Made by a program: the position numbers and the translations under genes | Part shown: positions 3,058-22,240 of the stretch, one piece after another | Position numbering within the stretch: position 1 is the stretch's first letter | Layout of the letters: every line of letters starts with the position of its first letter | DNA from: a virus | Direction: 5' to 3' (one strand) | Length of the DNA: 64,000 bases | IMG/VR virus record: IMGVR_UViG_3300037246_000990 | Span: 55,600-119,599 of that record | The notes under the pieces: model-generated | What the model was told of the DNA's origin: nothing | Seen by the model: only the letters and a program-made list of their open reading frames with translations | Databases searched by the model: none

Positions 3058-3399
3058 ATGATTAAACCTTTTCAAAACTATATGGCAGCATACCAGGCTG
3101 ACAGCAAAGCACTCCTTCACGATGGTAACTGGACTATCGAGAAGCTAAGTGAACTAGAAGAAGCACAGGGCTTCAGGTCACATCGGAGTGATTACTTCTC
3201 ATTGCTCAAGCATGTGTGTTATCCCAAGGGGTACGACGGTAAGGTTCCTTACCCAGAAAACGGGAGCAACTGCGTGTATCAAGTGGTGGTGTACCCCGAC
3301 GTCAGATCAGATTGCTGGCGTTGCGCGGCAAAGATACCCGAAGGCATGGTAGCGGTGTGGAAGTTTCAGAATTGGGAGCAACTAAAGTATGGAGGCTAA
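3058..3399 (+). CDS. Small HxC/CxxC-P zinc-finger protein (paralogue family, copy 1)
   Basis: LLHDGNWTI..KHVC..CWRCAAKIPEGMVAVWKFQNW. Confidence 0.65.
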   Translation: MIKPFQNYMAAYQADSKALLHDGNWTIEKLSELEEAQGFRSHRSDYFSLLKHVCYPKGYDGKVPYPENGSNCVYQVVVYPDVRSDCWRCAAKIPEGMVAVWKFQNWEQLKYGG

Positions 3400-4081
3400 G
3401 AAACGAACAAGGCGGGTACCCAAGCGGTTGAACACACCCTTCCTGAAGCATGGCATAACGGAGATCAACAACGAGATCGAGAAGGCGTACTCCAAGGTGA
3501 CAGGAAAGGACAAGCTATGGCAGACGTATGACAAGATCCAGGTATCAGATGCAGAGGCGTGCTTCCGCCAGTACCGTGGCAAGTGTGTGTTCTGTGACAC
3601 ACGCCTCAGCTACCTAGGCAGGGTAACGATGCCCGCAGCACGGCTAATGTTCTACGTACCACTCAAGGTAGGTGGTGAAGCACGGCCCGACAACCTCATC
3701 GTAGTATGCGCTCACTGCAAGCATGAGTACCGAGACACACGCAAGCTGAGGCAGGACATAGTAGGGCTGGATAGCTTTGCTGACTGCTGCGAAGAGTTGT
3801 TCATAGCCATCAAGGAAGGGCACCCCCAAGCTAAGATCAACATGCTTAAGGCACGAATCAACACACGGCTGACCGATGTGGCTACGTGTATGAGGTACGT
3901 CACCACCCCCGACTGGAGGCCAGTCAAGATGGAGAAGCTGGTTGATGGGAAAAACACAATGGCTGAGGCACTGGAAAGTATGGGTAAGGGAGAGGATACG
4001 AAGGAGGCTATCACGAACAACGTGAAGCAGGCAGTGACAACTAAACAGTACAGGATCATGAGGGAGCCAACCGATGAGTAA
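3389..4081 (+). CDS. HNH-fold zinc-binding protein, catalytic residues apparently absent
   Basis: CVFC...FYVPLKVGG...NLIVVCAHCKH matches the HNH scaffold but lacks the DH pair and the terminal N. Confidence 0.6.
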   Translation: MEAKKRTRRVPKRLNTPFLKHGITEINNEIEKAYSKVTGKDKLWQTYDKIQVSDAEACFRQYRGKCVFCDTRLSYLGRVTMPAARLMFYVPLKVGGEARPDNLIVVCAHCKHEYRDTRKLRQDIVGLDSFADCCEELFIAIKEGHPQAKINMLKARINTRLTDVATCMRYVTTPDWRPVKMEKLVDGKNTMAEALESMGKGEDTKEAITNNVKQAVTTKQYRIMREPTDE

Positions 4082-4113
4082 GTTTGCCATCAACCTCGCA
4101 AGGTGGGCAACAG

Positions 4114-4395
4114 ATGCTGACGCTTGAAAAGATCTTTGAGAAACAGATCAGAACCAACATTATTAAAAGGGAAATCCTGTTTGAAGATGGGCTATGGTGT
4201 ATCTACAAAAGAACACCAGCCGACATTAACAGCACACACAGTCTCATCCATAGATGTAGTATATACGTATGGTCCGCAACCCTAAAAACACTTCCGGTCA
4301 GGTGCCCTGAATGTGAAGAGGCAGCACCTGAAGGGATACTGGGGTTGCTTGAGCTGCAACAGTGGGGAACAAAGGACGGTAAGTATGCTAATTGA
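4114..4395 (+). CDS. Small HxC/CxxC-P zinc-finger protein (copy 2)
   Basis: ILFEDGLWCI..IHRC..CPECEEAAPEGILGLLELQQW. Confidence 0.65.
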   Translation: MLTLEKIFEKQIRTNIIKREILFEDGLWCIYKRTPADINSTHSLIHRCSIYVWSATLKTLPVRCPECEEAAPEGILGLLELQQWGTKDGKYAN

Positions 4396-5854
4396 GTTCG
4401 ACAACACCGTAGCTCTAATCAAACCAGAGGATGATGATGAGCTAAAGATGTACGCTCAGGTACGAGATGGGGTCAAGACTATGGCCCCCGGTGCCCGGTA
4501 CATGAGGCAGCATAAGCTCTGGCTCCAAACGAAAGGGGCAAGAGGGTGGGATGGGCGCACCAGCATCCTCAGTAAGGCACACCCCAGCAACGGCAGTGCC
4601 TTCTTCCCTACGGGGCTGCTGCCCTACATCCACACAAAGCTAGCGGAGCTGGTTGTGTTGCCCTTCACCTTCAATGACCTGAGGCATACGCCACCAGTAC
4701 CCAGCTACAACTACACTGTACCACTATTTGACTTCCAAGCCATAGTCTTCCTTGATGCAGTAGACAACAGAGTATTCATGGGAACCACAGCAGGCTATCA
4801 CTGGCCTCAAGGTGTACTTCAGATAGCAACTGGAGGGGGCAAGACAGAGCTAGCTGTAGCTATGTGCCAAGCGATACCTGTACCCACCATGTTCATCGTC
4901 CATCGTAAGCACCTAGTTACCCAAGCTAAAGCTAGGTTCGCTAAGTATGGTATCACAGCGGGGCAGATAGGTGATGGGGTGTTTGACCCCAACACCTCCG
5001 GCGTGACTATAGCCACAACACAAACACTAGACCGGTTGTTCAAAGAGGGCGACAACGAGAAGATCAAGCAATTCTTAGGAGCAGAGCAGATCTTCTTCGA
5101 TGAGGCCCACCTTGCCGCCAGCAAGATAGCAGTGGGGAACCAACTTGTTTCGGTGTCTCGTCAGTTCCGCAGGGCGTACTACAGGTGGGGCCTAACCGGA
5201 ACCGCCTTTATGAAGGACAAATACAGTAACCAACTCCTTATGGGGTGTACTGGCGATAGGCTTGCTCATATCACCAGCGACCAGCTCATCAAAGCGGGCT
5301 ATCTCACGCCACCTCGGGTAGTGATGATAAATATGCCTGATATCGGCAGGCCAAAGAGTTGGCCTGAAGTATTTGATCACGCCATCGTTCTAAATCTGAA
5401 TCGGAACAAAAGAATCATAGAGGAGTTGGACAAATGCCCAAAGCCTGCGCTGGTGATGTCATCACGATTATCACATGCAAGTATCCTCCGAAGAATGGCG
5501 ATAAATAAAGGGATTTCGGTTCCGTCCGTTCATTGCGGGGCTACGAAAAACAAGGATAGAACCAAAGGGATAACTGACTTGCAATCTGGGAAAATAAATG
5601 CTATAATTGCTACAACAATCTATGACGAGGGTTTGGATATCCCCGAGCTACGTACCCTCATCTTGGCCGGAGGGGGTAAGAGTAAAGTGGCAGCACTTCA
5701 GAAGATTGGCCGAGGCTTGAGGAAAGCAGCAGGGAAACATGAGGTGCTGATCATTGATTTCTGTGATCAGACGGGAGCAATACTAAAACGACACTCGGCT
5801 GCGAGGAAAAAGATATGGGAGGAAGAAAACTTCAATGTTACAGAGGAAGACTAA
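4385..5854 (+). CDS. Superfamily 2 DExH helicase (UvsW/Rad25-like)
   Basis: ATGGGKT, DEAH, GLTGT, DEGLDIP and QKIGRGLR motifs. ATG start chosen at 4385. Confidence 0.9.
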   Translation: MLIEFDNTVALIKPEDDDELKMYAQVRDGVKTMAPGARYMRQHKLWLQTKGARGWDGRTSILSKAHPSNGSAFFPTGLLPYIHTKLAELVVLPFTFNDLRHTPPVPSYNYTVPLFDFQAIVFLDAVDNRVFMGTTAGYHWPQGVLQIATGGGKTELAVAMCQAIPVPTMFIVHRKHLVTQAKARFAKYGITAGQIGDGVFDPNTSGVTIATTQTLDRLFKEGDNEKIKQFLGAEQIFFDEAHLAASKIAVGNQLVSVSRQFRRAYYRWGLTGTAFMKDKYSNQLLMGCTGDRLAHITSDQLIKAGYLTPPRVVMINMPDIGRPKSWPEVFDHAIVLNLNRNKRIIEELDKCPKPALVMSSRLSHASILRRMAINKGISVPSVHCGATKNKDRTKGITDLQSGKINAIIATTIYDEGLDIPELRTLILAGGGKSKVAALQKIGRGLRKAAGKHEVLIIDFCDQTGAILKRHSAARKKIWEEENFNVTEED

Positions 5855-6299
5855 AGACTGGAAGAGATTCTGGAGCAAGGTAAAGAGAGGCCCGAACTGT
5901 TGGGAATGGCAAGCAGGTTGCTGCTCTGATGGTTACGGTAAGTTTTGGTTTGAAGGTCGAAATAGTCTGGCTCATCGTGTGTCGTATGCAACAAGCCAGG
6001 GTATACCAGAAAAGCTGTGTGTCTTACATACCTGCGATAACCCACCATGTGTCCGACCCTCTCACTTGTTCCTAGGGACACAGGCCGATAACGTAGCTGA
6101 CATGGTAATCAAAAGAAGGCAATCATATAATACCGGCGCTTGTGGTGTCCAACACGGGAACGCAAAGCTCACAGAAGCACAGGTGAAAGCTATCCGCTGC
6201 GACCCTAGGCTACAGTGTATAATAGCTAAAGATTACAAGGTGAGTCGTTCTACAATAACTTATATTAGGCAACGCAAAACCTGGAAGCACGTCGCATAG
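5835..6299 (+). CDS. Free-standing HNH homing endonuclease
   Basis: [37 protein letters not shown] plus a C-terminal HTH. Confidence 0.9.
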   Translation: MLQRKTKDWKRFWSKVKRGPNCWEWQAGCCSDGYGKFWFEGRNSLAHRVSYATSQGIPEKLCVLHTCDNPPCVRPSHLFLGTQADNVADMVIKRRQSYNTGACGVQHGNAKLTEAQVKAIRCDPRLQCIIAKDYKVSRSTITYIRQRKTWKHVA

Positions 6300-6309
6300 G
6301 AACCCACCA

Positions 6310-6579
6310 ATGGATGCTATAAAGTATGGCCAAGTCATGCTCACAGAAGGTGAGTTCTCCATCAAGGCAGGAATATTTAGTTATTTCATAGTACATGACG
6401 TTTGTGGTACTGGTGTTTATTCTGTAATGAGAGACAGGACCCCAGGGAAACATGATTGGTGCCGACGCTGCTACGACCTCTACGGTAAGAAGATACAATA
6501 CGATGAGAAAATGACAGGAATCGTAGCTCTACTAGATTGGAAAGATGAAGGAGACAGCCGTGACCAATTTGCTGAGTAA
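6310..6579 (+). CDS. Small HxxC/CxxC zinc-finger protein (copy 3)
   Basis: MLTEGEFSI..VHDVC..CRRC..DEKMTGIVALLDW. Confidence 0.6.
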   Translation: MDAIKYGQVMLTEGEFSIKAGIFSYFIVHDVCGTGVYSVMRDRTPGKHDWCRRCYDLYGKKIQYDEKMTGIVALLDWKDEGDSRDQFAE

Positions 6580-7258
6580 CGCAAAGACAAACGCTAAGAC
6601 AAAGAAGATGTTGGATGAGTTCGGATACGAAGGGGTCATTCACTACATGGCGCCTGACGTGGTGGCTGACGGAAAACACACAGTATGCCCTCATAGCACG
6701 ATAGGTTGCCGTGAGTCTTGTCTATATACTGCTGGTCGAGGAGCTATGAGAAATGTGCAAGATGCACGCATCCGTAAGACACTGGAGTTCCTCAAGGACA
6801 AGCAAGGGTACGCAGACAAGTTGGTCAAAGAACTGGCCAACCTTGAGACCCGTGCCTTGAAGAAGGGTTACACGCCAGTAGCTCGGCTGAATGGTACGTC
6901 AGACATCCCATGGGAGAACTACATCGACATGGAAGCCCTCCCCAACGTCCGATTCTATGACTACACCAAGGGTTATATGAGGATGCAGAGCTGGCTGCGT
7001 GGGGTGCTACCTTTCAACTATCATCTGACATTCAGCAATGATGAACACACGACGCTTGCAGAGCGGCACTTCATCCTGGCGAAGGGAGGCACCGTGGCCA
7101 TGGTATTCAGGGATAAGATCCCCGACTGCTGGCAGATGTACCCTGTAATTTCAGGTATGACACACGATTTTAGATTCCGTGACAAGACAGGCTGCATCAT
7201 AGGGCTACTCGCAAGGGGCCGTGCCAAGCAAGACAGCACAGGGTTTGTGGTGGATTGA
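6545..7258 (+). CDS. GP88-like Fe-S/radical-SAM-like phage protein
   Basis: CPHSTIGCRESC, RLNGTSDIPWE, FYDYTK and YHLTFS motifs. Confidence 0.7.
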   Translation: MKETAVTNLLSNAKTNAKTKKMLDEFGYEGVIHYMAPDVVADGKHTVCPHSTIGCRESCLYTAGRGAMRNVQDARIRKTLEFLKDKQGYADKLVKELANLETRALKKGYTPVARLNGTSDIPWENYIDMEALPNVRFYDYTKGYMRMQSWLRGVLPFNYHLTFSNDEHTTLAERHFILAKGGTVAMVFRDKIPDCWQMYPVISGMTHDFRFRDKTGCIIGLLARGRAKQDSTGFVVD

Positions 7259-7545
7259 TGAGTACGAGCAACGTAGGTACACTAAAGATCCTAGTACCTG
7301 ACATACAAGGGTGGGCAATAGTTAAACACCAGTTCAGCGTGACGGGTACTTCCATCCATGGTGAACATTTAATAGGATGCAAACATGCCTTCGATAGACT
7401 GATAGCTCGTTGGTGCTGGGAGTGGAGCGATGCTGGTGTAGAGAATACGGACCGCTGTTGGGTGTGTAAAGAACCTGTGCCAGAAGAGATCGTAGCGCTA
7501 GTAGCGATGATGAATTGGGAGAAGATACAACGTGGCAAACCTTAA
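7255..7545 (+). CDS. Small His/Cys CxxC-P zinc-finger protein (copy 4)
   Basis: ILVPDIQGWAI..EHLIGC..CWVCKEPVPEEIVALVAMMNW. Confidence 0.65.
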   Translation: MMSTSNVGTLKILVPDIQGWAIVKHQFSVTGTSIHGEHLIGCKHAFDRLIARWCWEWSDAGVENTDRCWVCKEPVPEEIVALVAMMNWEKIQRGKP

Positions 7546-8491
7546 AACATTCAAGAAGTACAAGCCCAAGTACAGGAAGCCGGTGCACAAGACAGACGAA
7601 GAACTGAGAGGCCCCTTCAAGCCTATGAAACCGTTTACTATTCACGACCCTAAGGTACACGTACAGTACCCATCTCTATGCACCCCCAAGATTGACGGGA
7701 TCCGGTGTGTCACGTATCCAAACGGGACACCTATGAGCTACCAACTCAAGCCCATCCCCAACCTCCACATCCGCAAGGTGTTGGAAGAGTACGGGGTAGA
7801 GGGTATGGACGGTGAGCTGTTCATCAGAGGTGCCAAGACATTCGGTGAGTCCTCCGGTCCCATCATGAAGGTAGATGGTGAACCTGACTTCATTTACTAC
7901 GTGTTCGATATCTATAACAGCCTTGACTTTTACAACCAGAGAGTGAAGCAGTTGGACAAGCTGCCTAAGCCGAGGCCAGCGTGCATCGAGTTGGTAAAAC
8001 CAACCCTTGTCTTTGATGCCGATGGGTTCATGAAGTATTGGAACAAGTGTGTAGACGAGGGGTACGAGGGAGTCATCGCAAGGCAAGGGCATGTGTACCT
8101 CCACGGTCGTAGCACCATGACACACGGTGGTATGGGTAAGTACAAGCATTTCCAAGATGATGAGGCAGAGATCATTGGGTTTGAAGAGATGTGTACTAAT
8201 ACGAATCCCAAGAAAACCAATGCTCATGGTAGGTCGGAGAGGTCGAGTGCTAAGGCAGGCAAGGTACCCAACGGCCACCTTGGTAAGTGGTTATGCCGAG
8301 ACCTCAAGACAGGCATCGAGTTCTCCTGCGGTACCATGAAGGGTGTGACGAAGAAGCAACGCAAGGAGTGGTGGAGTAACAGGCAAATCTACATTGGGTA
8401 CATCTGTAAGTACAAACATCAGCCAAGCGGAGAGACAGCGAAGCCTCGTTTCCCGGTTTGGTTGGGGTGGCGTTCAAAGGATGACATGTAA
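7532..8491 (+). CDS. ATP-dependent DNA ligase
   Basis: KIDG (motif I), DGELF, VFDI, EGVIAR, KYK and RFP motifs. Confidence 0.93.
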   Translation: MANLKTFKKYKPKYRKPVHKTDEELRGPFKPMKPFTIHDPKVHVQYPSLCTPKIDGIRCVTYPNGTPMSYQLKPIPNLHIRKVLEEYGVEGMDGELFIRGAKTFGESSGPIMKVDGEPDFIYYVFDIYNSLDFYNQRVKQLDKLPKPRPACIELVKPTLVFDADGFMKYWNKCVDEGYEGVIARQGHVYLHGRSTMTHGGMGKYKHFQDDEAEIIGFEEMCTNTNPKKTNAHGRSERSSAKAGKVPNGHLGKWLCRDLKTGIEFSCGTMKGVTKKQRKEWWSNRQIYIGYICKYKHQPSGETAKPRFPVWLGWRSKDDM

Positions 8492-8754
8492 TGGCTTATA
8501 AGTTTGAAGTACTGGTTGAGGAAGGTGACTTTCGGATAGCCCGTGTTAAAGGGGATGCCCAACATCAGAGATGGATCGTTGTTCAACATCGTTGCGACCC
8601 AGATGTATACGTCGATAGGCTATTTAGTGATAACGGGTGGTCACTTTGTTATCATAGTGATAGGCGATGCTACTGCTGTAAAACGCCTGAACCTGACAAG
8701 ATGATAGGCTTCCACGACTTAATAATGTGGAACAATACTGAGTATAGAGTATGA
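8491..8754 (+). CDS. Small HxC/CxxC-P zinc-finger protein (copy 5)
   Basis: VLVEEGDFRI..QHRC..CYCCKTPEPDKMIGFHDLIMW. Confidence 0.65.
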   Translation: MAYKFEVLVEEGDFRIARVKGDAQHQRWIVVQHRCDPDVYVDRLFSDNGWSLCYHSDRRCYCCKTPEPDKMIGFHDLIMWNNTEYRV

Positions 8755-8925
8755 GGAGATGCAATGTGTTTCTTTAAGCACAAATGGGGGAAGTGGGAAG
8801 CCCCCGTCACAACTAACCCAGACGACGAAGGCAACATAAACAAAATGCAAGTAAGAACTTGTGATCGTTGTGGTCTATGGCAGCGACGGATGTGCTACCC
8901 GTATGGAATATGAGGAGATGCAATG
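8750..8925 (+). repeat. 17-bp direct repeat TATGAGGAGATGCAATG at 8750-8766 and 8909-8925
   Basis: Two identical stop+RBS+start junctions flank the 49-aa gene. Confidence 0.9.
8764..8913 (+). CDS. 49-aa Cys/His microprotein (DUF1660-like), below the ORF-track cutoff
   Basis: Manual translation MCFFKHKWGKW...RTCDRCGLWQRR, with GAGGAG RBS. Confidence 0.6.
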   Translation: MCFFKHKWGKWEAPVTTNPDDEGNINKMQVRTCDRCGLWQRRMCYPYGI

Positions 8926-10149
8926 CGTGTACTAACAGGTAACAAGCAGAAGGTTCCGGTGAAGGCATGGGTGGATGGCGTGGAGCTAGATATCAAGGCC
9001 GAGATACAGCTACGCCAGACAGCGCAGCTCCCCTTCATTCACAAGCATCTAGCTGTCATGCCAGATGCACACTGGGGCATGGGCTCCACTGTAGGGAGTG
9101 TCATAGCTACGAAGAAGGCAATCATACCTGCTGCGGTGGGTGTGGACATTGGGTGTGGTATGATTGCTGCACGCCTGCCTGGTGCGGGAATATCTTGTGG
9201 TGTGGTCGAGTTCTGTAAGGAGATCCGCGCAGCCATCGAAGCAGCGGTACCTCACGGGCGCACCGACAACGGTGGGCCGAAAGACGAGGGGCGGTGGCAA
9301 GACAGTATCCCTCGTAGCACAGGTGTCGAGTGGAGTAATATGCAGCAGGCTTTCTGGGACATAGGTGACAAGCACCCGGAGATCTATAAGTGGGGCTCTC
9401 CTATGTACCAGCTCGGTACGCTGGGTGGAGGCAACCACTTCATTGAGGTGTGCAAGGACGAAGAGAATGAGGTGTGGGTCATGCTGCACTCAGGGTCACG
9501 GGGTATCGGCAACAAGATCGGTAGGTACTTCATCAAGCTTGCTCAAAGGGAGTGTGAGAAGTGGAACATTGATCTACCCAACTCGGACCTGGCGTACTTG
9601 CCTGAAGGTACAGAATACCATGACGATTACGTTGAGGCGGTACACTGGGCACAGAGTTACGCCAAGATTAACAGAGATATCATGCTGGAGCTAACGCTGG
9701 AAGCGATGGGTGGTGTGCTTGGGTATGATATCCGGCCCGACGATCTTGTGGTGAATTGTCATCACAACTACGTGCAGAAGGAGAACCACTATGGGAAGAA
9801 CGTATTTGTTACGCGCAAAGGCGCTGTACGGGCTAGGGTTGGTGATCTTGGTATTATCCCTGGGTCTATGGGAGCCCGGTCTTACATTGTGGAAGGTCTT
9901 GGCAATCCTATGTCTTTCAATTCCTGTTCTCATGGAGCTGGTCGGGTTATGTCGAGGGCGGAAGCCAAGCGAACCTTCACGGTGAAGGATCACATCGCAG
10001 CCACCAAGGGTGTCGAGTGCCGGAAGGACAAGGGTGTGATAGATGAGACACCCGGCTGTTACAAGGACATCGATGCTGTCATGGCAGCGCAGAAGGATCT
10101 AGTGAAGATCAAGCACATACTGAAAGCTTTGGTGTGTGTCAAGGGGTAG
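8923..10149 (+). CDS. rtcB: RNA-splicing/repair ligase RtcB
   Basis: MPDAH, VGVDIGCGM, GTLGGGNHFIE, HSGSRG, HHNY, RKGA, PGSMG, SHGAGR and YKDI motifs. Confidence 0.95.
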   Translation: MRVLTGNKQKVPVKAWVDGVELDIKAEIQLRQTAQLPFIHKHLAVMPDAHWGMGSTVGSVIATKKAIIPAAVGVDIGCGMIAARLPGAGISCGVVEFCKEIRAAIEAAVPHGRTDNGGPKDEGRWQDSIPRSTGVEWSNMQQAFWDIGDKHPEIYKWGSPMYQLGTLGGGNHFIEVCKDEENEVWVMLHSGSRGIGNKIGRYFIKLAQRECEKWNIDLPNSDLAYLPEGTEYHDDYVEAVHWAQSYAKINRDIMLELTLEAMGGVLGYDIRPDDLVVNCHHNYVQKENHYGKNVFVTRKGAVRARVGDLGIIPGSMGARSYIVEGLGNPMSFNSCSHGAGRVMSRAEAKRTFTVKDHIAATKGVECRKDKGVIDETPGCYKDIDAVMAAQKDLVKIKHILKALVCVKG

Positions 10150-10240
10150 CCTACACCTAAATATAGTATTCGCTCGAATTGACGAGCATGAAAACCGTGC
10201 CAAAATGAGGAAATATTATACCTCGGCACAAGGAGGAAGC

Positions 10241-10546
10241 ATGCAAGCTAATGGTAAAGATATAATAGAAGTGATACGTATGGGGGAGTGGAGCATCCTC
10301 AATATGTTGGAGGCTAGTTCACGGGGTGTAGAGGGGCCAGGGGTCGTACATAGACCCTGCGACGGTTGGATAAGGTTTGGGATGCGGGAAAACGCTTTGT
10401 ACTGCCGCTCATGCCATGAAGCTATGCCTAAGGATATAGTAACACTTTGGTTACTCCTCGCAGCGGACTTAGCTTGTAGTAATGGCTTCTACAAGGGAGT
10501 TACCATCGCCGATGTCACCCAGGATGATCAAGGAGGTTACTCATGA
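10241..10546 (+). CDS. Small HxxC/CxxC-P zinc-finger protein (copy 6)
   Basis: AGGAGG RBS before ATG 10241; VIRMGEWSI..VHRPC..CRSCHEAMPKDIVTLWLL. Confidence 0.65.
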   Translation: MQANGKDIIEVIRMGEWSILNMLEASSRGVEGPGVVHRPCDGWIRFGMRENALYCRSCHEAMPKDIVTLWLLLAADLACSNGFYKGVTIADVTQDDQGGYS

Positions 10547-12047: not shown

Positions 12048-12383
12048 ATGAGCGGACTTAGGTTCTCGCCCCGGTGGGCACTCTCGCCTAGAGATTGGGA
12101 TATTCATCTATCCTGCTCGAAAAGAGTAATACCCGACCAACACGCCCAGAGTGGCACCATAAAAGGTAAACAACAAAGACAAGAAGAAGATAAACGTAAA
12201 GGACTACAACAAGAACAGTGGTTCTATATTGAGAGAGATGGGAATAGTAATAATTGTACTGTGGTACATGACTCCAGCTTTCTCCCCTCTGAGGGGTTGA
12301 TGTATTTTGGGCAACGAAACCAGCCATTCAACTTCAGGGGACAACAGCACACCCCCTCATGTCTTGGTGTGATGCCAGCATGA
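12048..12383 (+). CDS. Hypothetical protein
   Basis: GGAGG RBS, downstream of the promoter. Confidence 0.5.
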   Translation: MSGLRFSPRWALSPRDWDIHLSCSKRVIPDQHAQSGTIKGKQQRQEEDKRKGLQQEQWFYIERDGNSNNCTVVHDSSFLPSEGLMYFGQRNQPFNFRGQQHTPSCLGVMPA

Positions 12384-12802
12384 GGGGGCCTTCTAAGTCT
12401 CACACCTATAATCCAGGCGAAGGAGCCAAAACCAGAATGGTAGAATGGGACGGCACTCAGTACATAGACATAGAGACTTACTACAAGCGCGTGGTTTTGA
12501 GCATGCCTCAGGACGGTGACGCCCTCCTAGGAGCCATGACACACCTCAATGCACTGACGTACCTCGGTTGTAGTAAGCTGTTCGTAGCTGAGACCGATGA
12601 GATGGATATCTACGTAGATGCTTGGCTGGTCAACGGTGCCTTCATCACCCACAAGCACCCTGAGTTCGGGGTGGTGAAGCAAGACAGCTGGGTGACCGGG
12701 ATGGTAGAATGTGGGCTACGTCACAGGGCGTGTGAACTATGTGGGAAAGTGATACCGGGTGAGATTGAAATGATGCATCACTTTTACAGGCTAGACAACT
12801 AA
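12359..12802 (+). CDS. CxxC-P protein, divergent member of the zinc-finger family (copy 7)
   Basis: ITHKH..CELCGKVIPGEIEMMHHFY. Start codon uncertain. Confidence 0.55.
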   Translation: MSWCDASMRGPSKSHTYNPGEGAKTRMVEWDGTQYIDIETYYKRVVLSMPQDGDALLGAMTHLNALTYLGCSKLFVAETDEMDIYVDAWLVNGAFITHKHPEFGVVKQDSWVTGMVECGLRHRACELCGKVIPGEIEMMHHFYRLDN

Positions 12803-12822
12803 GGAGAAAGAAGAATGGGAGG

Positions 12823-13005
12823 ATGTCGATGCCGCACTACGAGATGATATGCAATAGCGGGCATGAGACAGAGGTGGAGCAACGGATCACCGAAGATCCT
12901 CTGACTGTGTGCCCCAAGCTGGGCACTGATCAAGATGGCAATGAGGTGCAGTGTTGCTCCCCTTGTCGTAGGCTGACGAAGGAGGCTGATGATGCCTCAC
13001 TATGA
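12823..13005 (+). CDS. FmdB-like zinc-ribbon protein, C-terminally truncated copy
   Basis: MPHYEMICNSGHETEVEQRITEDPLTVC...CRRL. Confidence 0.65.
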   Translation: MSMPHYEMICNSGHETEVEQRITEDPLTVCPKLGTDQDGNEVQCCSPCRRLTKEADDASL

Positions 13006-13237
13006 TTACAAATGCGACGCGGGTCATGAGTTTGAGATTGAGCAGCGTATCACTGCGGATGCTTTGAAGGTGTGCTACTTCAGAGAAACCATAAATAGTA
13101 ATGAGCTTGAAGGGCTTGAAGGATACGGCACACCTATCAAGCAACGTGTGTGCGGTGCTCCTTGTCGTAGGCTGATCTCTAAGACCAGCTTCACGTTCAA
13201 AGGTGGAGCCCCAACCCCTAAGGGAGGTATGATATGA
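12989..13237 (+). CDS. FmdB-like zinc-ribbon protein
   Basis: MPHYDYKCDAGHEFE...CGAPCRRLISKTSFTFKGG. Confidence 0.8.
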   Translation: MMPHYDYKCDAGHEFEIEQRITADALKVCYFRETINSNELEGLEGYGTPIKQRVCGAPCRRLISKTSFTFKGGAPTPKGGMI

Positions 13238-15017: not shown

Positions 15018-15028
15018 GTGGAGAACTA

Positions 15029-15490
15029 ATGCCGTATAAAAGTATACCGTTAACTGACAGGCTACAGAGGGGGCTTAAGCTACAACCTAGTGGATGCTGG
15101 GAATGGCAGGGTTACTGTACCCGGGGAGGGTATGGACAGACCGGTAGTGGCGGAAAATATGGTAAAAAGCTTTATGTACATAGAGCAATATGGGAAATTG
15201 TCTTTGGTTTTATTCCAGAAAGGCTGTGCGTCTTGCATAAGTGTGATAACCCTCCTTGTGCTAACCCGGCTCATCTATTTTTAGGTACGAAGGCTGACAA
15301 TATAGCTGATATGGTAAGCAAAGGGCGTCAACGAGGCCCACGGGGAACCCAACACGGAAACGCAAAACTAACTTGGGATCAAGTTCACGCTATTCGTGTT
15401 GATGGTAGAACTCAACTTAAAATTGGCAAAGCGTATGGAATTAACCAGACAGCAGTGAGTGCTATTAAAAGAGGCACGCGATGGAAGTAA
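15029..15490 (+). CDS. Free-standing HNH homing endonuclease
   Basis: CWEWQ..VHRA..VLHKCDNPPCANPAHLFLGTKADN; paralogue of 5835..6299. Confidence 0.9.
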   Translation: MPYKSIPLTDRLQRGLKLQPSGCWEWQGYCTRGGYGQTGSGGKYGKKLYVHRAIWEIVFGFIPERLCVLHKCDNPPCANPAHLFLGTKADNIADMVSKGRQRGPRGTQHGNAKLTWDQVHAIRVDGRTQLKIGKAYGINQTAVSAIKRGTRWK

Positions 15491-15626: not shown

Positions 15627-15872
15627 ATGACAGAGCAGCCGTACCTAGAGAGGCTTGAACAGATAATCGAGCGGCAGTACAAAGACCACCCGACTGGCTG
15701 CGGTGGGAGCTTCGGAGAGCTGCTGTGTTGGGAGATCCATGAGAACGGGAAGACCTTCATCTGGCTGGCTGAGAAATGGGGGATCAGTGTGACCACGCTT
15801 GGGGATCTAATCGCGGACCATTGCCGCAAGCTAGAGGAAGACCCGTGTGTATCGCATGAGGAGAGCAGATGA
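15627..15872 (+). CDS. Small HTH-like protein
   Basis: LAEKWGISVTTLGDLI. Confidence 0.55.
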   Translation: MTEQPYLERLEQIIERQYKDHPTGCGGSFGELLCWEIHENGKTFIWLAEKWGISVTTLGDLIADHCRKLEEDPCVSHEESR

Positions 15873-18442
15873 CAGAAAGTTGTAAATTGAGCTGTGACGG
15901 CCAACCGGCCTGTAAGCTAGGGTCGCTGACCAAGCAGGTCCAGGTCGCGGGCCATAACCTGCTCTACACCCCTAGGACGTCGAATCTAGAGGCCCCAGTA
16001 CCCCACAAAGTCATGATTGTGGTGAAATCTCCTGATAACAAGGACATTGGGACCCTGGGCAAGGGCCGAAACATTGAGAAGTTGAAGGAGCTACTGGCCC
16101 TCGCAACCCTAGATGAGAGCGATGTCTACGTCACGGGGCTGGTCAAGTGCTCGCCGCCAAAGCGACCGCCCTCGGTACAGGAGATCCTAGCTTGCATGGG
16201 GCATCTGGGCGATGAGCTGAAGGCCGTGGACCCTGACGTGGTGGTACTTATGGGGGCAGCTACCCTCCGTGCCTTCAACCTGATGGGGGAGGGCGGCGTT
16301 AATAAGCTGCACGGAAAGATCATTGAGAAAGCTTTTCCTCATGACGACACCAATGACAAGGTGTACAAACTCATGGTTACAACCGATCCCAACGCCCTGT
16401 ACATGAACCCTGACCCGCGCCTCCAGGGCACAATGGTCAAGGACCTGATCCTCGCCAAGGCTGTGGTTGAGGGCGACCTCGTCAACCCACACCAGCAGGA
16501 CGTGGACTACAAGCTGATCGACAACCTCGCTGACCTAGACTGGATGGTGAAGCAGATCCGGAGGAAGGGAATGTTCGCCTTTGACTCTGAGTCACGGGGC
16601 CTACCCTGGAGCGAGCAACCCCTAATCTGCTTGCAGTTCTGCTGGGGTTACAATGAGGATACTCAGACAGTGGCAGTGCTGCCCTTCTACAACCACGATC
16701 CGGATGGCACGGATTGGAAGTTGAAGGCCCGGTGGTCTGCTTTTGGGTACCGGGGTCGGATCATAGAAAAGCTGAAGGAGATCTTTGAAGACCCCAACAT
16801 CCCGAAGGTCGCCCACAACATCAAGTACGACATGTGCGTGATGCGGAAGCACCTCGGCATAGAGACTAAGGGCTTCCTGTTCGACACCCTGCTTCTCCAT
16901 CACGTCCTGTGGGAGCACCCGCCGCATGACCTTGAGTACCTCGCTGACCTAGAGCTGAACACAGGCAACTACAGTAAAGCAGTCCACGACATCACAGGTC
17001 ATGGTAGGGTGCTACGGAACACCTATGATCACGTACCTGATGAGATCCTCCATCCCTACGGGGCCAAGGATGCTGAGAGTACGTATCGTTTGTTCTGCCG
17101 GTACTACTCCAGGCTGCAGAACCTACCGGACCAGTGGCAGCTATACACGGATGAGGTGCATCCCTTCATCCGCACCATGATGAAGGCTGAGTGGAAGGGC
17201 ACTCGTTTGTCTACAGACGTGATCGACACACTGACCGAGGAGTTCGTGAAGGAGCAGGCTGAGCTGTCTATCAGCCTCAAGAAACGGACGTGGCCTGAGT
17301 TCAACGGCGACAAGTCAGATGATGTGGCTAAGGCCATCATCCAGGCTGGGTACGGGAGGGATATAGAGACCCCCAAGACCACCCAAGGCTACAGCACTGA
17401 CAAATCTAAGCTGCTGCCCCTCATCAAGAAGCTCCCCATCGTGGAGGAGTTCATGAGGTACCGCTCGCTCACCAAGCTGATCAGTACCTACATGAACAAC
17501 GCCAAGGATATGAGTGGGTCTGCTGATGGTAGGGCTAGGATCAGTGTGCTGCTGCATGGTACTGTTAATGGTCGGCCTTCCTGCGCTTTCCTTCACCAGA
17601 TTCCTCGCCTTGATTGGGAGCGTATCAAGAAAGGCCTGGGCAACCTGAGGGACATGTTCATAGCTCAAGAGGGCTACAGCATGGTCTATGGGGACTTTTC
17701 TCAAATTGAATTGGTTGTCCTCGCCATCAAGTCAGGCGATGAGAACATGATGGAGATCTTCCGATCAGGCCAGGACATCCACAAGGCCACGGCTGCTCAG
17801 TTCGTAGGGCTTGAGGACGATCAGGTCTGTGCCCACAACCGTGACCTCGCCAAGCCCGTCAACTTCAGTAGGGTGTACGGTGCGGTGGAAGGGCGCTCGC
17901 TGATGAAGCTGACGTGGATGGACCTGGAAGGAAACGAGTGGCCTGTGACGAAGGAGATGATACAGGACGGGTACGCTGCGCTGGACGAACGGTTTCCTGC
18001 TGCGGGTGAGTACTTCATCAACACGGTGGCTGAGATCTCAGCTAACGCTGGCATCCACGTCACTCCGTTTGGTAGGGTCAAGCACATGGGCAGCACCCTC
18101 AACTCAGGCAACAAGTGGGCGAGGGAGAACGCTGAGCGACAGGCAGTGAACGGCACCATCCAGTCACCGGCTGCATCGGTGACTATCCGTACCCTTAACG
18201 CCATGAACGCGTACCTTGAGGAGCAGATCAAGGTAGGTCTCATGACGGAAGAGGAAGCGGCCCTCATCATCACGGTGCATGACTCCGGGTTGTTTGAGGT
18301 GAAGAACGAACACCTGGGTTGGTTCGAAGATAAGCTACGTGAGATCTCGAATCGTCCCGTACCCCAGCTCGACAACTGGCGCTTCACCATGAAGGTGGGC
18401 ATCGGGCAGAGCTGGTCGGAGGCAGAACTCAATGCAAAATAA
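15869..18442 (+). CDS. Family A DNA polymerase with N-terminal UDG-like domain and 3'-5' exonuclease
   Basis: UDG4-like LVKCSPP..EILAC..VVVLMG; exonuclease FDSE, AHNIKYD and YGAKDA; polymerase DFSQIE, AKPVNF..YG, NGTIQS and VHDS. Confidence 0.95.
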   Translation: MTESCKLSCDGQPACKLGSLTKQVQVAGHNLLYTPRTSNLEAPVPHKVMIVVKSPDNKDIGTLGKGRNIEKLKELLALATLDESDVYVTGLVKCSPPKRPPSVQEILACMGHLGDELKAVDPDVVVLMGAATLRAFNLMGEGGVNKLHGKIIEKAFPHDDTNDKVYKLMVTTDPNALYMNPDPRLQGTMVKDLILAKAVVEGDLVNPHQQDVDYKLIDNLADLDWMVKQIRRKGMFAFDSESRGLPWSEQPLICLQFCWGYNEDTQTVAVLPFYNHDPDGTDWKLKARWSAFGYRGRIIEKLKEIFEDPNIPKVAHNIKYDMCVMRKHLGIETKGFLFDTLLLHHVLWEHPPHDLEYLADLELNTGNYSKAVHDITGHGRVLRNTYDHVPDEILHPYGAKDAESTYRLFCRYYSRLQNLPDQWQLYTDEVHPFIRTMMKAEWKGTRLSTDVIDTLTEEFVKEQAELSISLKKRTWPEFNGDKSDDVAKAIIQAGYGRDIETPKTTQGYSTDKSKLLPLIKKLPIVEEFMRYRSLTKLISTYMNNAKDMSGSADGRARISVLLHGTVNGRPSCAFLHQIPRLDWERIKKGLGNLRDMFIAQEGYSMVYGDFSQIELVVLAIKSGDENMMEIFRSGQDIHKATAAQFVGLEDDQVCAHNRDLAKPVNFSRVYGAVEGRSLMKLTWMDLEGNEWPVTKEMIQDGYAALDERFPAAGEYFINTVAEISANAGIHVTPFGRVKHMGSTLNSGNKWARENAERQAVNGTIQSPAASVTIRTLNAMNAYLEEQIKVGLMTEEEAALIITVHDSGLFEVKNEHLGWFEDKLREISNRPVPQLDNWRFTMKVGIGQSWSEAELNAK

Positions 18443-18602: not shown

Positions 18603-18612
18603 GAGAAGTATA

Positions 18613-18912
18613 ATGGATAACGAAACAGACAGCAAAGCAACACACTACATGGCAACAGTATCAATCAACATGGGGTGGCAATGCCCTGTGTGCGACAAGT
18701 GCTACGCTCCCTGGGTTCCTAAGTGTGAGGATTGTGGCTCAGGTTCAGACTTCACCGTCAAATACAACGATAACATGGCAGGGTGCGAGCACATCTGGAG
18801 CCCTAACTCGCAGACCATAATGGGTGTCTTCTGTATCTACTGTGGCCACCCGCAGACACCCCCAGCAGCTTCGGGGAACGTATGCTCAAACGAAGGAGAA
18901 GTAAATGGTTGA
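18613..18912 (+). CDS. Cys-rich hypothetical (GWQCPVC..YAPWV..C)
   Basis: AGGAG RBS and zinc-ribbon motifs. Confidence 0.65.
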   Translation: MDNETDSKATHYMATVSINMGWQCPVCDKCYAPWVPKCEDCGSGSDFTVKYNDNMAGCEHIWSPNSQTIMGVFCIYCGHPQTPPAASGNVCSNEGEVNG

Positions 18913-19366
18913 AGTAACAGTGGAATACTTGGAAGAAGGCCAGTGGGTCGCCAACTCAGTGGAGCTAGACACCGATAGTGACCTAGCTCTCAGTGATGAA
19001 ACCCTTAACAAGGACATGTGCGCGCTCCCTAAGCGTATTGCACACTACGCTGAGGTGGCGGCTGAGTGTCATGCCTATGCCTCTCGTAAGAAGAACGAGG
19101 TGGAGGTGGTAGAAGCTGAGGTGGCACAGGCACTTAGGATCGAAGCTGCTCAAAACAAGCTGAAGATCACGGAGGCTGGTATCCGAGAGCATGTCGTCCA
19201 GCAGGTTGAGGTGACTGAGGCACGCCATGCCTCATACAAGGCACAGGCTCAATACACCATGGTTGATGGCTTCTACAGGGCCCTGCGAGAGATGGCATCC
19301 CTGGCTATCGCCCTGTGCTACAAGCAGAAGGAGGAGATTCGGGTCCTAAATAGCCCATTGGAATAG
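18905..19366 (+). CDS. Helical protein, possibly a UvsY-like recombination mediator
   Basis: Coiled-coil character, KITEAGI motif, located near SSB and RecA. Confidence 0.5.
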   Translation: MVEVTVEYLEEGQWVANSVELDTDSDLALSDETLNKDMCALPKRIAHYAEVAAECHAYASRKKNEVEVVEAEVAQALRIEAAQNKLKITEAGIREHVVQQVEVTEARHASYKAQAQYTMVDGFYRALREMASLAIALCYKQKEEIRVLNSPLE

Positions 19367-19396
19367 GTTGCAATCTTTGGAAAGAAAAGCTATAAT
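19367..19396 (+). promoter_or_regulatory. Conserved promoter element copy B (near-identical)
   Basis: GTTGCAATCTTTGGAAAGAAAAGCTATAAT. Confidence 0.85.
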
Positions 19397-19433
19397 TGAA
19401 TCATAACCAATTCGTCAACGACGACGATACTGA

Positions 19434-19631
19434 ATGAGGAGAAACATGGGCATTGCATTATCGATAGAGATATACGAAGACAGAGTACAACCAGGGCTAT
19501 TCCGTTGGGTTTTTCTTGACTCCTCCGGAGACAAACACGGTCCTTCTGTGGGGTTCACATCCCGTTGGGAGGCGAAGGCTGATGTTGAAAGGATTCTTGC
19601 TACACATATGGATAAGAAGGGAGGCAAATAA
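19434..19631 (+). CDS. Small hypothetical protein
   Basis: First ORF after promoter copy B; TAATG coupling to the next ORF. Confidence 0.5.
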   Translation: MRRNMGIALSIEIYEDRVQPGLFRWVFLDSSGDKHGPSVGFTSRWEAKADVERILATHMDKKGGK

Positions 19632-19843
19632 TGTCTGAAGAACTAAGGAAGATAGCAGAAGATCTGCAAAAGCATTACGCTCGCCTAAGCGTCTTGGCGG
19701 CGGAAAGCCTAGAGCAGACTAGAAAGAATTCCGGAGCAGGCTACTGCTGGTCTATCAAAGATGCAGCAAATGATTGCTTTAATAGTGCCGTGTGCCTACA
19801 AAGCCATGCAGACAACCTGGACCTGGATAAGGGAGACAACTAA
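19631..19843 (+). CDS. Small hypothetical protein
   Basis: GGAG RBS and TAATG overlaps on both sides. Confidence 0.55.
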   Translation: MSEELRKIAEDLQKHYARLSVLAAESLEQTRKNSGAGYCWSIKDAANDCFNSAVCLQSHADNLDLDKGDN

Positions 19844-20031
19844 TGGAAGGGAAACGAAAGTTCAATCGTATGGTCTGGTGGAAGCAGTTGTTCCCTCGAA
19901 CCCTATACACTATTTATCGAGACGAGCAAGAAGGCGGCAGGCGCTACTTTTCCATCTGGCGACAGTGGATGAACCGGGCTTACGACTTCCGTCGTATACC
20001 TGTAGCTGAACAGGACGAGGGAGACAAATAA
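19843..20031 (+). CDS. Small hypothetical protein
   Basis: GGAG RBS and TAATG overlaps on both sides. Confidence 0.55.
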   Translation: MEGKRKFNRMVWWKQLFPRTLYTIYRDEQEGGRRYFSIWRQWMNRAYDFRRIPVAEQDEGDK

Positions 20032-20765
20032 TGGAAGATGAAAACGGCCTGCCCGCAGGCTTTGGTGAGGTGGACAAGGACTTTCAGCGCGAGGCATACG
20101 AAGAGTCCAAGAAGATCAGAGATAGTGGTGATGGGAAGACCCTCTTCCTGAAGTCGGGGATGACCCACCTACGTATCCTCCCTCCGGTCAAGGGTGCCAA
20201 GTCATGGTTCCGTGCGTACAAAGAGCATGGGCTCAGGACCGATGGGAAGTACGGGACGTTCACTTGCCCTACGTCGATTGACGACAGCGAGTGCCCCATC
20301 TGTGAGGTAGGTAAGGAACTGTACGAGGCGAAGGGAGACACGAACATCAAGAAGGCTAAGAAACTGTACGCGAAGCAAGCCTACTTGTACAACGCCTACG
20401 TGTACAGCTCTCCGGACGGCAAGACTCTAGCTGATGGTATCTTCACTGTTAAGTCCGGGTCAATGGTGTTCAAGCAGTTCATGGAGTACGACAACGATCC
20501 GGCAGGCGATTGGGGTGATATCTCCAACATCGCCAGCGGTGTTGAGCTGAAGGTTACACGCACCGGCAAGGGTCGGTTCGATACTGAGTACGGGGTTATG
20601 GGCGTGCCTGCACGGTCTAACATCGTGGACCAGGTGACCGCGAAAGGCGTGGACTTTGGTGAGCCCACTGATCTGACTGAGGTATACCCTCCGCTTTCTT
20701 ATGATGAGTTGGCGGATGTGTACGCGAAGTCGGACAACGCTACTCAGGAAGCTGTAGTAGAATAA
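20031..20765 (+). CDS. gp32-like single-stranded DNA-binding protein
   Basis: LRILPP, H..C..CPIC zinc site, YLYNAYV and acidic tail; upstream of RecA. Confidence 0.8.
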   Translation: MEDENGLPAGFGEVDKDFQREAYEESKKIRDSGDGKTLFLKSGMTHLRILPPVKGAKSWFRAYKEHGLRTDGKYGTFTCPTSIDDSECPICEVGKELYEAKGDTNIKKAKKLYAKQAYLYNAYVYSSPDGKTLADGIFTVKSGSMVFKQFMEYDNDPAGDWGDISNIASGVELKVTRTGKGRFDTEYGVMGVPARSNIVDQVTAKGVDFGEPTDLTEVYPPLSYDELADVYAKSDNATQEAVVE

Positions 20766-20770
20766 GGTCT

Positions 20771-20822
20771 GGTGGGGTGGTGCCTTTGAGTCGAGACCAT
20801 TGGTCAGGGCCACCCCGCCTTT
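20771..20822 (+). terminator. GC-rich stem-loop followed by TTT (terminator/attenuator candidate)
   Basis: GGTGGGGTGG (20771-80) pairs with CCACCCCGCC (20810-19); short U tract. Confidence 0.5.
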
Positions 20823-20837
20823 CCGCCGGGAGATTAA

Positions 20838-21896
20838 ATGAATAGCTTCGACAACATGTTCAAAGCGGTAGTCAAGAAGACAAAGAAAGATCCCAACACA
20901 GCCGTGTTCAAACCAGGCGACATCAACATCAAGAGCAACATCCCCTGGAGTATTCGCACTGGAATACCTGAGCTAGACTTCAACATGGGGAAACCAGGCT
21001 GGCCTGCAGGCCGGTGTGTTGAGCTGTACGGATTTGAACACAGTGGTAAAACAACATTAGGGTATCATGCCATTGCCGAAGCGCAGCGCATGAGAGGTAG
21101 CGCGTGGTTCCTTGACACAGAGAAGTCGTGGGATGAGCTACGAGCGATGGACTGTGGTGTAGACCCTGATTATCATCTAGGTATCGGCGACCCCGACTCA
21201 GTGGACGCTATGTTCCGACAGATCCAGTACATCATTGAGGCAAGAGAAGAAGACAACGACGGCAAACCGCTGGTCATCGTAGTTGACTCCGTCACTGGCG
21301 CTGCTACTGAAGGTATGAAGGCTAAGACCATCGGCGAGATTGAGAAGATTGCACAGGATGCCAAGGCTATCCGTGGGGGTATCCGTCGTATTCAGCCTGA
21401 TATCGCAGGGCTCAACATCAACCTGTTCATGATCAATCATGCGACAGCCAACATCACAGCCAACAAGTACGCCAAGCAGAGTGACTCGTCTGGGGGGCAC
21501 TCTATCAAGCTGGCTGCTACTGTACGTTGTTCGATGAAGCATGCAGGGTGGATTACAGACACGGACAAGATCAAGCGGCTCGGCCAGAAGATCAGCCTTA
21601 AAATAGAAAAGCTGAAGGGGTCTCAATTAGATTACCCTGAAGTGCAGGACACCCCGCTGCTCAACACAGTGGGCTTTGACACGACTGAGAGCCTACTACG
21701 TGCTGGTATAAAGGCGGGTTGGGTGGAACATAAGAAGGGCTCCCAGGCTTACAAGCTATACGATGAGGAGTTCGACCGGAAGTCGTGGCCCGCACTTGTG
21801 TTTGGCCGTGGTGGGATTGATGCAGCATACACAGAGTGGATCGATTGGTGCATCGAGGATGGGTGCATGACTAGGTGGGGAAGGGGTCTCGAATGA
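20838..21896 (+). CDS. recA: RecA/UvsX-like recombinase
   Basis: GWPAGRCVELYGFEHSGKTT, DTEKS, VVDSV, INH and SSGGH motifs. Confidence 0.9.
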   Translation: MNSFDNMFKAVVKKTKKDPNTAVFKPGDINIKSNIPWSIRTGIPELDFNMGKPGWPAGRCVELYGFEHSGKTTLGYHAIAEAQRMRGSAWFLDTEKSWDELRAMDCGVDPDYHLGIGDPDSVDAMFRQIQYIIEAREEDNDGKPLVIVVDSVTGAATEGMKAKTIGEIEKIAQDAKAIRGGIRRIQPDIAGLNINLFMINHATANITANKYAKQSDSSGGHSIKLAATVRCSMKHAGWITDTDKIKRLGQKISLKIEKLKGSQLDYPEVQDTPLLNTVGFDTTESLLRAGIKAGWVEHKKGSQAYKLYDEEFDRKSWPALVFGRGGIDAAYTEWIDWCIEDGCMTRWGRGLE

Positions 21897-22240
21897 GTAG
21901 GCGTACTAGCTATGAGATTTTCCAAACGATGTCACTAACAGGCAACATAAAAGAAATAAAGCTTTATGTTGACGGGGCTTGGAGTCTCTATGGCAGACCA
22001 TCTACTTGGGGGTTGGATAATCTTATGAAGTCTTATTTTATCCATGATTGCCCTAACTATAAGAAGAGCATATGGTATCATTATTGGATTAACTATCTGG
22101 GCGAGGAAAAGCAGAGTACTCTCTTCGATATTGATTGCCAGGAGTGCAACACATCAGCACCCCAAGGACTTCAAGCACTCTGGCGTTTTCATAGCTTTGG
22201 GTGTGAAACAGCTCTTATCTTTATGGAGAAGACTACATGA
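21893..22240 (+). CDS. Small HxC/CxxC-P zinc-finger protein (copy 8)
   Basis: KLYVDGAWSL..IHDC..CQECNTSAPQGLQALWRF; ATGA overlaps on both sides. Confidence 0.65.
   Translation: MSRRTSYEIFQTMSLTGNIKEIKLYVDGAWSLYGRPSTWGLDNLMKSYFIHDCPNYKKSIWYHYWINYLGEEKQSTLFDIDCQECNTSAPQGLQALWRFHSFGCETALIFMEKTT

Follow-up and report, generated by a model that had tools for sequence, protein, structure and literature searches.

Tens of divergent paralogues, tandem arrays at the edges of transcription arms, birth-and-death turnover, and evolution faster than that of core genes characterize the multigene families of African swine fever virus (ASFV), as well as the ankyrin and Bcl-2-like families of poxviruses. Another kind of dispersed family is formed by the freestanding homing-endonuclease genes of T4-like phages (seg/mob type), with many small paralogues that lie between replication genes and whose presence varies from phage to phage. 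Here, we describe a family of small proteins, each with one histidine and three cysteines as putative zinc ligands, that is encoded by IMG/VR virus record IMGVR_UViG_3300037246_000990, a 119,599-bp record with direct terminal repeats; the stretch analyzed, hereafter the window, comprises 64,000 nucleotides, namely bases 55600-119599 (the right half) of this record. Like the ASFV and poxvirus families, the present family combines tens of divergent paralogues with an arm-edge tandem array, birth-and-death turnover, and fast divergence, whereas its host is presumably bacterial, its unit is a putative zinc module of ∼75 amino acids (aa) without a detectable relative in those viruses, and its function is putative only. 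With the seg/mob genes, it shares small paralogues between replication genes and a presence that varies between phages, but it has no nuclease motif or nuclease match, its positions are stable over deep divergence, and most of its copies reside in one array.

A probably clade-specific family of His-Cys3 proteins

According to the original prediction, about eight open reading frames (ORFs) dispersed among replication genes share a three-part signature, made of an N-terminal strand motif, a central His-Cys pair, and a C-x2-C motif followed by a proline and a hydrophobic helix. All eight ORFs, here c1 to c8 (starting at window positions 3058, 4114, 6310, 7255, 8491, 10241, 12359, and 21893, respectively), are present on the plus strand. 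We evaluated their kinship by a leave-one-out analysis, in which a profile built from seven ORFs was searched against all 471 window ORFs of at least 40 aa. The left-out copy was the best nontraining match in six of the eight cases (c1, c2, c4, c5, c6, and c8), whereas c3 (E 0.39) and c7 (E 0.49) failed. In BLASTP searches of each ORF against the same 471 ORFs, the best nonself match was another candidate for six of them, as with c1 and c4 (E 6e-5) or c2 and c8 (E 1e-5 over 101 residues). In their own genome, the six window copies, combined into a profile, matched 21 places and 25 ORFs at E<1e-3, i.e., 19 beyond the six, and an iterated profile search converged on 28 of the 922 genome ORFs, every one of them on the plus strand.

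The failure of c3 and c7 in the leave-one-out analysis would be expected if the similarity were a chance recurrence of Cys/His motifs in unrelated or noncoding ORFs. The probability of this explanation is close to nil, and for the six copies it is refuted: each of them passed the leave-one-out analysis; none of 922 reversed and none of 922 shuffled genome ORFs scored at E<1e-3; the family profile found relatives in a database of 1.84 billion proteins; the ratio of nonsynonymous to synonymous substitution rates (ω) was below 1 in all 20 orthologue pairs; and structure models of the proteins were confident. These ORFs are real genes of one protein family that looks specific to this phage clade.

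Concerning the two ORFs that failed, c3 carries H-x2-C in place of H-x-C, and an insertion after its C-x2-C motif stands where the proline would be, in agreement with the earlier remark that this copy lacks the proline. An hhalign comparison of c3 with the 28-member alignment gave a probability of 82.5% and an E of 1e-5 over 66 columns, and its orthologues L015_13587 (52% identical to c3) and L017_13700, from metagenome contigs L015 and L017, match the family profile at 7e-7 and 2e-8, respectively. Because the hhalign match covers the whole domain and the orthologues are significant members themselves, c3 is, on sequence grounds, a family member and a degenerate copy. The membership of c7 is doubtful; its shared features are limited to the strand histidine, C-x2-C-x4-P, and the helix, with H-x-H taking the place of H-x-C. 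It matches the 28-member profile at E 0.0035 and in hhalign with a probability of 34% (E 4e-4), both in the C-terminal half only, and the hhalign result is unchanged when two orthologues are added. A remote relative at best, c7 is nevertheless conserved at 64-67% identity in the sister phage G001 and in L015. The claim of a shared family was thus sound for six copies and also for c3, and uncertain for c7.

Among 1.84 billion cluster representatives, 272 were matched by the six-copy profile at a threshold of E 1e-3, and for 6 of these the E was 1e-10 or lower. The best 150 of these 272 all gave BLASTP matches to a member of this phage or its sister, mostly at 30-50% identity, and, in every case among those seen, the source name was "hypothetical protein." A tblastn search of c1 and c5 against 50,697 GenBank phage records returned none at E 0.1 or better, and the alignment of the c1 group, used as the only pattern, found none in 185,579 prokaryote species genomes. 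No fused forms were present among proteins of 369-2000 aa; the DUF2695 at the C terminus of one 363-aa relative is uninformative. A 139.9-kb viral contig that was reached via a distant relative does not carry the family. The distribution looks confined to one clade of uncultured ∼120-kb phages, comprising the present phage (G000), its sister G001, the genome fragment G002, and several contigs from metagenomes, of which two short ones are near-solid arrays, with 13 members in 5.2 kb and 7 members in 4.6 kb, respectively.

Layout and birth-and-death evolution

The family is much larger than the ∼8 dispersed copies originally reported. The 119.6-kb genome holds 28 members, all on the plus strand between genome positions 33505 and 77836, and more than half of them form one array just outside the window. 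This array comprises 15 members at genome 33505-38829, with 14 of them back to back from 34564; the remaining members are seven copies scattered at genome 42679-55277 and the six window copies. The statement that the copies are never in tandem holds inside the window and breaks down genome-wide; a 64-kb window can hide most of a family, and what appeared as dispersed copies is the tail of a tandem array. At the head of the rightward arm of the genome (33.5-92.6 kb; early and replication genes), this array lies just after a divergent intergenic region with sigma-70-like promoter matches in both directions (genome 33234-33337). A tRNA gene (Thr-TGT, genome 33139-33212, minus strand) lies at the edge of this divergent region, just upstream of the array, and a second one (His-GTG) is present at genome 43486-43561 on the plus strand.

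Family domains occupy 5.1% of the genome and 10.4% of the arm. Paralogue identity over 74 aligned columns is 9-47%, with a median of 21%; this divergence indicates old paralogues without recent spread. A paralogue expansion that takes up ∼5-7% of the genome is built here on a small domain unmatched in the public family and structure libraries searched; to our knowledge, expansions this large seem unusual in tailed phages. Nonarray members sit singly or in small groups at gene junctions and are packed tightly against their neighbors, so the junction copies are probably cotranslated with them.

The sister phage G001 (119,470 bp, with terminal repeats) is collinear with G000, has the same leading array, and contains 32 family matches, or 31 member ORFs. 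All six window copies have a reciprocal-best positional orthologue at the same G001 junction, with identities of 70% (c1), 42% (c2), 53% (c4), 62% (c5), 41% (c6), and 57% (c8); the genes that flank the window copies are 71-95% identical between the two phages. Across 20 family orthologue pairs, the median identity is 63%, the median nonsynonymous substitution rate (dN) is 0.28, and ω ranges from 0.21 to 0.58; for 29 other gene pairs, the median identity is 86% and the median dN is 0.093 (Mann-Whitney p = 1e-4 versus the family). The family genes are translated and under purifying selection, and they diverge ∼3 times faster than the neighboring enzymes.

Most G000 members, all six window copies among them, form long-stemmed pairs with G001 members in our tree, which also contains a few lineage-specific duplicates. 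Occupancy of the junctions varies among G000, G001, G002, L015, and L017. Three copies precede the helicase gene in G001 and in L017, versus one in G000; G002 has two copies after an ATPase gene and three after a DUF2201 gene, where G000 has one each; the c4, c5, and c6 junctions of G002 are without a member, and RtcB is absent there as well; and G001 lacks c3, both of its neighbor genes being present. At the same time, L017, with core proteins that are only 50-72% identical, retains c1-, c2-, and c3-type copies in place, and a c1-like copy precedes the gene for a 230-aa protein in 5/5 genomes or contigs. Copy-number changes occur mostly beside existing copies, and every orthologue group retains a conserved signature of its own. 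Gain and loss of copies are local, and the family evolves by birth and death, as is also evident from its 28 and 31 copies in the two phages, the 15-copy array, the many orthologue pairs, and some lineage-specific duplicates. A search for flanking or terminal repeats found none around the family copies. The suggestion that a minimal element spreads into operon junctions is not supported, in view of the age of the copies, the long-stem orthologue pairs, the stable junctions, the clustering of copy-number changes beside existing copies, and the lack of flanking repeats and of a catalytic signature.

Predicted scaffold and candidate roles

In a MAFFT alignment of the 28 paralogues, His, Cys, Cys, and Cys are the only residues that are invariant (28/28). 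The other residues of the three-part signature are frequent in the aligned members of the two genomes (Gly in 36/55, Trp in 45/57, and Pro in 50/59), and the signature stands as proposed. Each family protein is a single domain of about 75-115 aa, in which H-x-C lies 19-35 residues before C-x2-C. We modeled c1 and c5 by AlphaFold2, using 149 relatives for c1 and 140 sequences for c5. The c1 model has a predicted local distance difference test score (pLDDT) of 78 and a predicted template modeling score (pTM) of 0.70; the c5 model has a pLDDT of 88.8 and a pTM of 0.80, with strands at residues 4-11, 14-20, 29-34, and 50-54 and a helix at residues 69-78. The elements come in the same order in both models. 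First is a two-strand hairpin, which corresponds to the previously noted N-terminal motif, and then a third strand, at whose end H-x-C lies; after a variable stretch, there follow a fourth strand, the C-x2-C knuckle, the proline, and a helix of ∼10 residues. In the c1 model, a loop contains two additional short helices. The predicted scaffold is therefore a four-stranded antiparallel sheet with a CxxC knuckle and a C-terminal amphipathic helix, and the agreement of the two models points to the single shared fold that had been anticipated. Since the four residues are invariant and are placed accordingly in the models, we infer that one zinc most likely pins the scaffold through H-x-C, at the end of strand 3, and C-x2-C, before the helix. 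The alignments agree with the earlier view of a conserved His-Cys3 scaffold whose loops vary in length and sequence. Five metagenome relatives (P0030, P0038, P0068, P0071, and P0139) carry an extra N-terminal Cys/His-rich stretch (C-x-C...H...P-x-C) before the family domain; this stretch, which has no Pfam match, is possibly a second metal site.

None of the eight ORFs reaches a Pfam cut-off, the best match being DUF2614 with 15 bits versus a cut-off of 21. Among 149 relatives, Pfam gave no consistent family and no zinc family that reaches its cut-off; single relatives showed stray matches to Zn_Ribbon_1 or Zn_ribbon_10 at E 0.002-0.008. Of the 28 paralogues, none matched PHROGs (including its antidefense families, as far as it holds some) or NCBIfam, and none matched a PADLOC defense model at E 0.01 or better. 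A sequence profile search of the PDB gave a best E of 0.098; Foldseek found none at E 0.001 or better in the PDB (c1 and c5 models) or in BFVD (c1 model only); and the ESM Atlas held no usable match for c1 or c5. No description of such a family turned up in the part of the literature accessible to us. The impression that the proteins belong to no named family is thereby confirmed for Pfam, PHROGs, NCBIfam, PADLOC, PDB, and BFVD.

In structural comparisons by VIA-align (a wide search and a second look), every Z was below 5, the maximum being 4.3 with the c5 model and 3.8 with the c1 model; models that have no true match typically reach a best Z of 7-8. For both models, the top matches were PH-like, EVH1, and Ran-binding domains, including RanBP3 (Z 4.3, root-mean-square deviation 4.0, 70 residues), the Dcp1 EVH1 domain (Z 4.2), and the Homer EVH1 domain (Z 3.8); a PUR repeat of PURA (the top match of the second look; Z 4.1, root-mean-square deviation 3.0, 61 residues) and a PC4-like protein of phage T5 (Z 3.2) were also found. 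These matches lie within noise and therefore only show that four strands plus a capping helix are a common arrangement. The PH-like, EVH1, Ran-binding, PUR, and PC4-like folds likewise have four strands and a helix, but none has a zinc site there and none has sequence similarity to the family.

The zinc ribbon and zinc-knuckle families (e.g., Zn_Ribbon_1, PF13240, and DUF2614, PF11023) likewise are small domains in which C-x2-C and a second ligand pair hold one zinc. The present family differs in that its first ligand pair is an H-x-C at the end of a sheet strand and in its additional N-terminal hairpin and C-terminal helix. A zinc ribbon has two C-x2-C knuckles, each in a β-hairpin; we rejected this assignment, as the family has a single C-x2-C, its other ligand pair is H-x-C, and no match exceeds the gathering score. 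HNH/His-Me finger nucleases combine a catalytic His with an Asn, His, or Asp metal ligand in a ββα motif. This class was likewise rejected, because only H, C, C, and C are invariant, with no Asn, Asp, or second His conserved; HNH-type profiles matched none of the 8 ORFs, 28 paralogues, or 149 relatives in a search that does find the true HNH_3 gene at 5835-6299. The zinc-binding anti-sigma (ZAS) factors have the motif H-x3-C-x2-C, whereas here the His lies 20-40 residues from C-x2-C, within a local H-x-C motif, and there is no anti-sigma Pfam match; a ZAS factor was rejected as well.

The reading that we favor, tentatively and at somewhat less than even confidence, is that of an old birth-and-death family that supplies a repertoire of zinc-held protein-binding modules, made together with the early and replication genes. 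Every module would have its own target in the host or the phage and would serve host takeover or counter-defense, and the array members would be expressed early in infection. We prefer this repertoire because the array leads the arm; because the domains are mostly acidic or neutral (isoelectric point <6.5 in 39/59 and >8 in only 7/59, with a mean net charge of -2) and Trp-rich (1-6 Trp in each of 59 domains); and because the birth-and-death turnover of copies is accompanied by retention of a distinct signature in each old paralogue. Several observations weigh against it: (i) the sigma-70-like matches, scored by consensus only, are no commoner than in shuffled sequence (13 versus 11.4); (ii) other small genes of no known function in the arm are equally fast (ω 0.28-1.0), and, since ω is <1 throughout and these genes diverge as fast, the rate does not specifically point to an arms race; (iii) the loop after H-x-C varies freely in length within the c1 orthologue group, so the loops may be unconstrained rather than a binding surface; and (iv) the PUR- and PC4-type matches are to folds that bind single-stranded nucleic acid, which would favor a rival role.

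That rival role, as small zinc-finger binders of single-stranded DNA or RNA or as gene-specific transcription or translation regulators of the downstream gene, would suit small, Trp-rich, putatively zinc-binding proteins, many copies of which lie directly upstream of genes. We give it a low probability: the fold matches that point to it are within noise, as is every match below Z 5; acidic or neutral domains prevail; among the 149 relatives, no Pfam family that binds DNA or RNA appeared at E 0.01 or better; and no repeated operator-like DNA motif accompanies the copies. Overlap with the starts or stops of adjacent enzyme genes, together with the conserved signature of each orthologue group, might instead indicate accessory subunits or adaptors of the adjacent phage enzyme (helicase, ligase, RtcB, DnaB, or SbcD), with the shared scaffold, in one variant, tethering the enzymes to a common replisome hub. 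In 5/5 genomes or contigs, the gene for the 230-aa protein has a c1-like copy before it and the helicase gene a c2-like copy upstream, which would fit such pairing; we regard this role as rather improbable given that 15 of the 28 members lie in an array without intervening enzyme genes. Furthermore, G002 keeps the GP88-like and ligase genes without a member between them and has none between ligase and DnaB either; G001 does without c3 although both neighbors are present; and the pile-up of several copies at single junctions, such as the three before the helicase gene in G001 and L017, is unexpected of one-to-one subunits. A complex prediction for c2 and the downstream helicase gave an interaction prediction score from aligned errors (ipSAE) of 0.01, in a single run without controls that weighs neither way.

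Selfish mini-genes that spread into junctions in the manner of the T4-like homing-endonuclease genes, or that hitchhike with them, would also come to lie among core replication genes, where three HNH_3 paralogues sit as well, and would differ in junction presence, absence, and copy number among related genomes, as the family copies do. Insertions do occur in this region, as an unrelated 49-aa mini-ORF beside c5, with a duplicated 28-nucleotide (nt) junction, attests. Such a nature is very improbable for the family itself, which gives no match to a nuclease family (0/8 ORFs, 0/28 paralogues, and 0/149 relatives), has no invariant residues beyond the four presumed zinc ligands and hence no catalytic signature, and lacks flanking repeats. 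All six window copies occupy the same junctions in G001, the c1-, c2-, and c3-types have stayed in place in L017, and paralogues that are 9-47% identical argue against recent spread.

Should the members be target-specific binders, as in the favored repertoire reading, they would form a natural library of compact scaffolds held together by zinc, from which new takeover or counter-defense proteins could be drawn, and would offer a clean case of phage gene duplication, movement to operon junctions, and divergence. A further-reaching version, which we consider unlikely, is that the array members would neutralize host-defense or takeover targets and the junction members would have been recruited as partners of replication and repair enzymes, giving ∼30 mini-binders on one previously undescribed scaffold. 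If this is true, bacterial viruses would have a counterpart to the multigene families found in large DNA viruses of eukaryotes, with one fold serving as both counter-defense weaponry and replisome glue.

Window copies and gene setting

The original prediction also held that each copy usually overlaps the start of the next gene. We find this for c1, c2, c4, c6, c8, and, under an earliest-ATG model, c3, but not for c5 or c7. Our ORF lists use the earliest ATG, GTG, or TTG, and for c4, c6, and some array members, it is uncertain which codon is the start. All copies below are on the plus strand.

c1 (3058..3399; 113 aa; leave-one-out E 1.1e-9) has H52, C54, C86, and C89 as putative zinc ligands, and its last 11 nt overlap the following gene, which starts at 3389. 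Its orthologue group of 19 sequences, 34-71% identical to c1, has 12 invariant columns, with the sheet, helix, and tail conserved. For c2 (4114..4395; 93 aa; E 3.5e-8), the ATG at 4114 is backed by the alignment, as the orthologues in four other contigs begin at the same Met; its end overlaps the likely ATG of the superfamily 2 (SF2) helicase gene (4385) by 11 nt, and in L017 the two further family copies lie between the c2-like copy and this gene. The divergent c3 (6310..6579; 89 aa) is followed by c4 (7255..7545; 96 aa; E 4e-8), whose likely start, ATG 7258, overlaps the stop of the GP88-like gene and whose end overlaps the ligase start (7532). The start of c5 (8491..8754; 87 aa; E 1e-6) overlaps the ligase stop by 1 nt; its putative zinc ligands are H33, C35, C60, and C63, and it is the best match to the 28-member profile (E 2e-20). 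For c6 (10136..10546; E 3.8e-4), the maximal ORF begins at GTG 10136, the start proposed earlier is ATG 10241, and the domain begins at about 10270; its stop overlaps the DnaB start (ATGA at 10543), and it matches the 28-member profile, in which c6 itself is among the training members, at E 5.7e-12. The doubtful c7 spans 12359..12802 (147 aa). Finally, c8 (21893..22240; 115 aa; E 9.5e-4) overlaps the stop of the UvsX-like gene with its start and the SbcD start (ATGA at 22237) with its stop.

Neighboring genes were named by PHROGs and Pfam scans, which agree with the initial naming. They encode a sigma factor (window 920-2182), an HNH_3 endonuclease (5835-6299), a GP88-like protein (6545-7258), the SF2 helicase, an ATP-dependent ligase, RtcB, DnaB, a gp32-like single-stranded DNA-binding protein, a UvsX-like recombinase, and SbcD. 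Further right, on the minus strand, are genes for a major head protein and an internal virion protein, the presence of which identifies a tailed phage; its own sigma-70-type factor suggests that the host is a bacterium. "Marine sediment metagenome" is the source label of a related 119-kb genome and of the one sequencing run listed as containing the window stretch, which is probably the source sample; no RNA run was listed as containing it. The family A DNA polymerase (857 aa, window 15869-18442) has at most 28% identity to any of the 50,697 GenBank phage records, and, being below 30% to all of them, it marks the phage as belonging to a little-known lineage; alignments of this polymerase to many GenBank phages begin only past the first 40-80 residues.

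The three HNH_3-type homing-endonuclease paralogues lie between core genes at window 5835-6299 and 15029-15490 and, outside the window, at genome 53185-53655. Their junctions partly differ in related genomes; in L015, for instance, one such gene follows the ATPase gene and another the helicase gene. An RNA ligase gene, RtcB, occupies window 8923-10149 and is shared with G001 and probably with L015; between ligase and DnaB, G002 instead has a 201-aa ORF unrelated to it, and the c5 and c6 copies are absent too. Between c5 and RtcB, the 49-aa mini-ORF (window 8764-8913) contains Cys/His motifs, has no Pfam match, and is unrelated to the family. It is bounded by a 28-nt direct repeat (89% identical; window 8742-8928) that consists of a stop, GAGGAG, and an ATG, and in G001, RtcB directly follows c5 without the mini-ORF between them; the mini-ORF was apparently inserted into the junction, with duplication of the ribosome-binding site and the start. 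Two adjacent small genes, at 12823-13005 and 12989-13237, both begin with MPHY and match Zn_ribbon_8 (FmdB-like) at E 3e-6 and 6e-7, respectively, below the gathering score; they represent a second, unrelated pair of mini zinc proteins.

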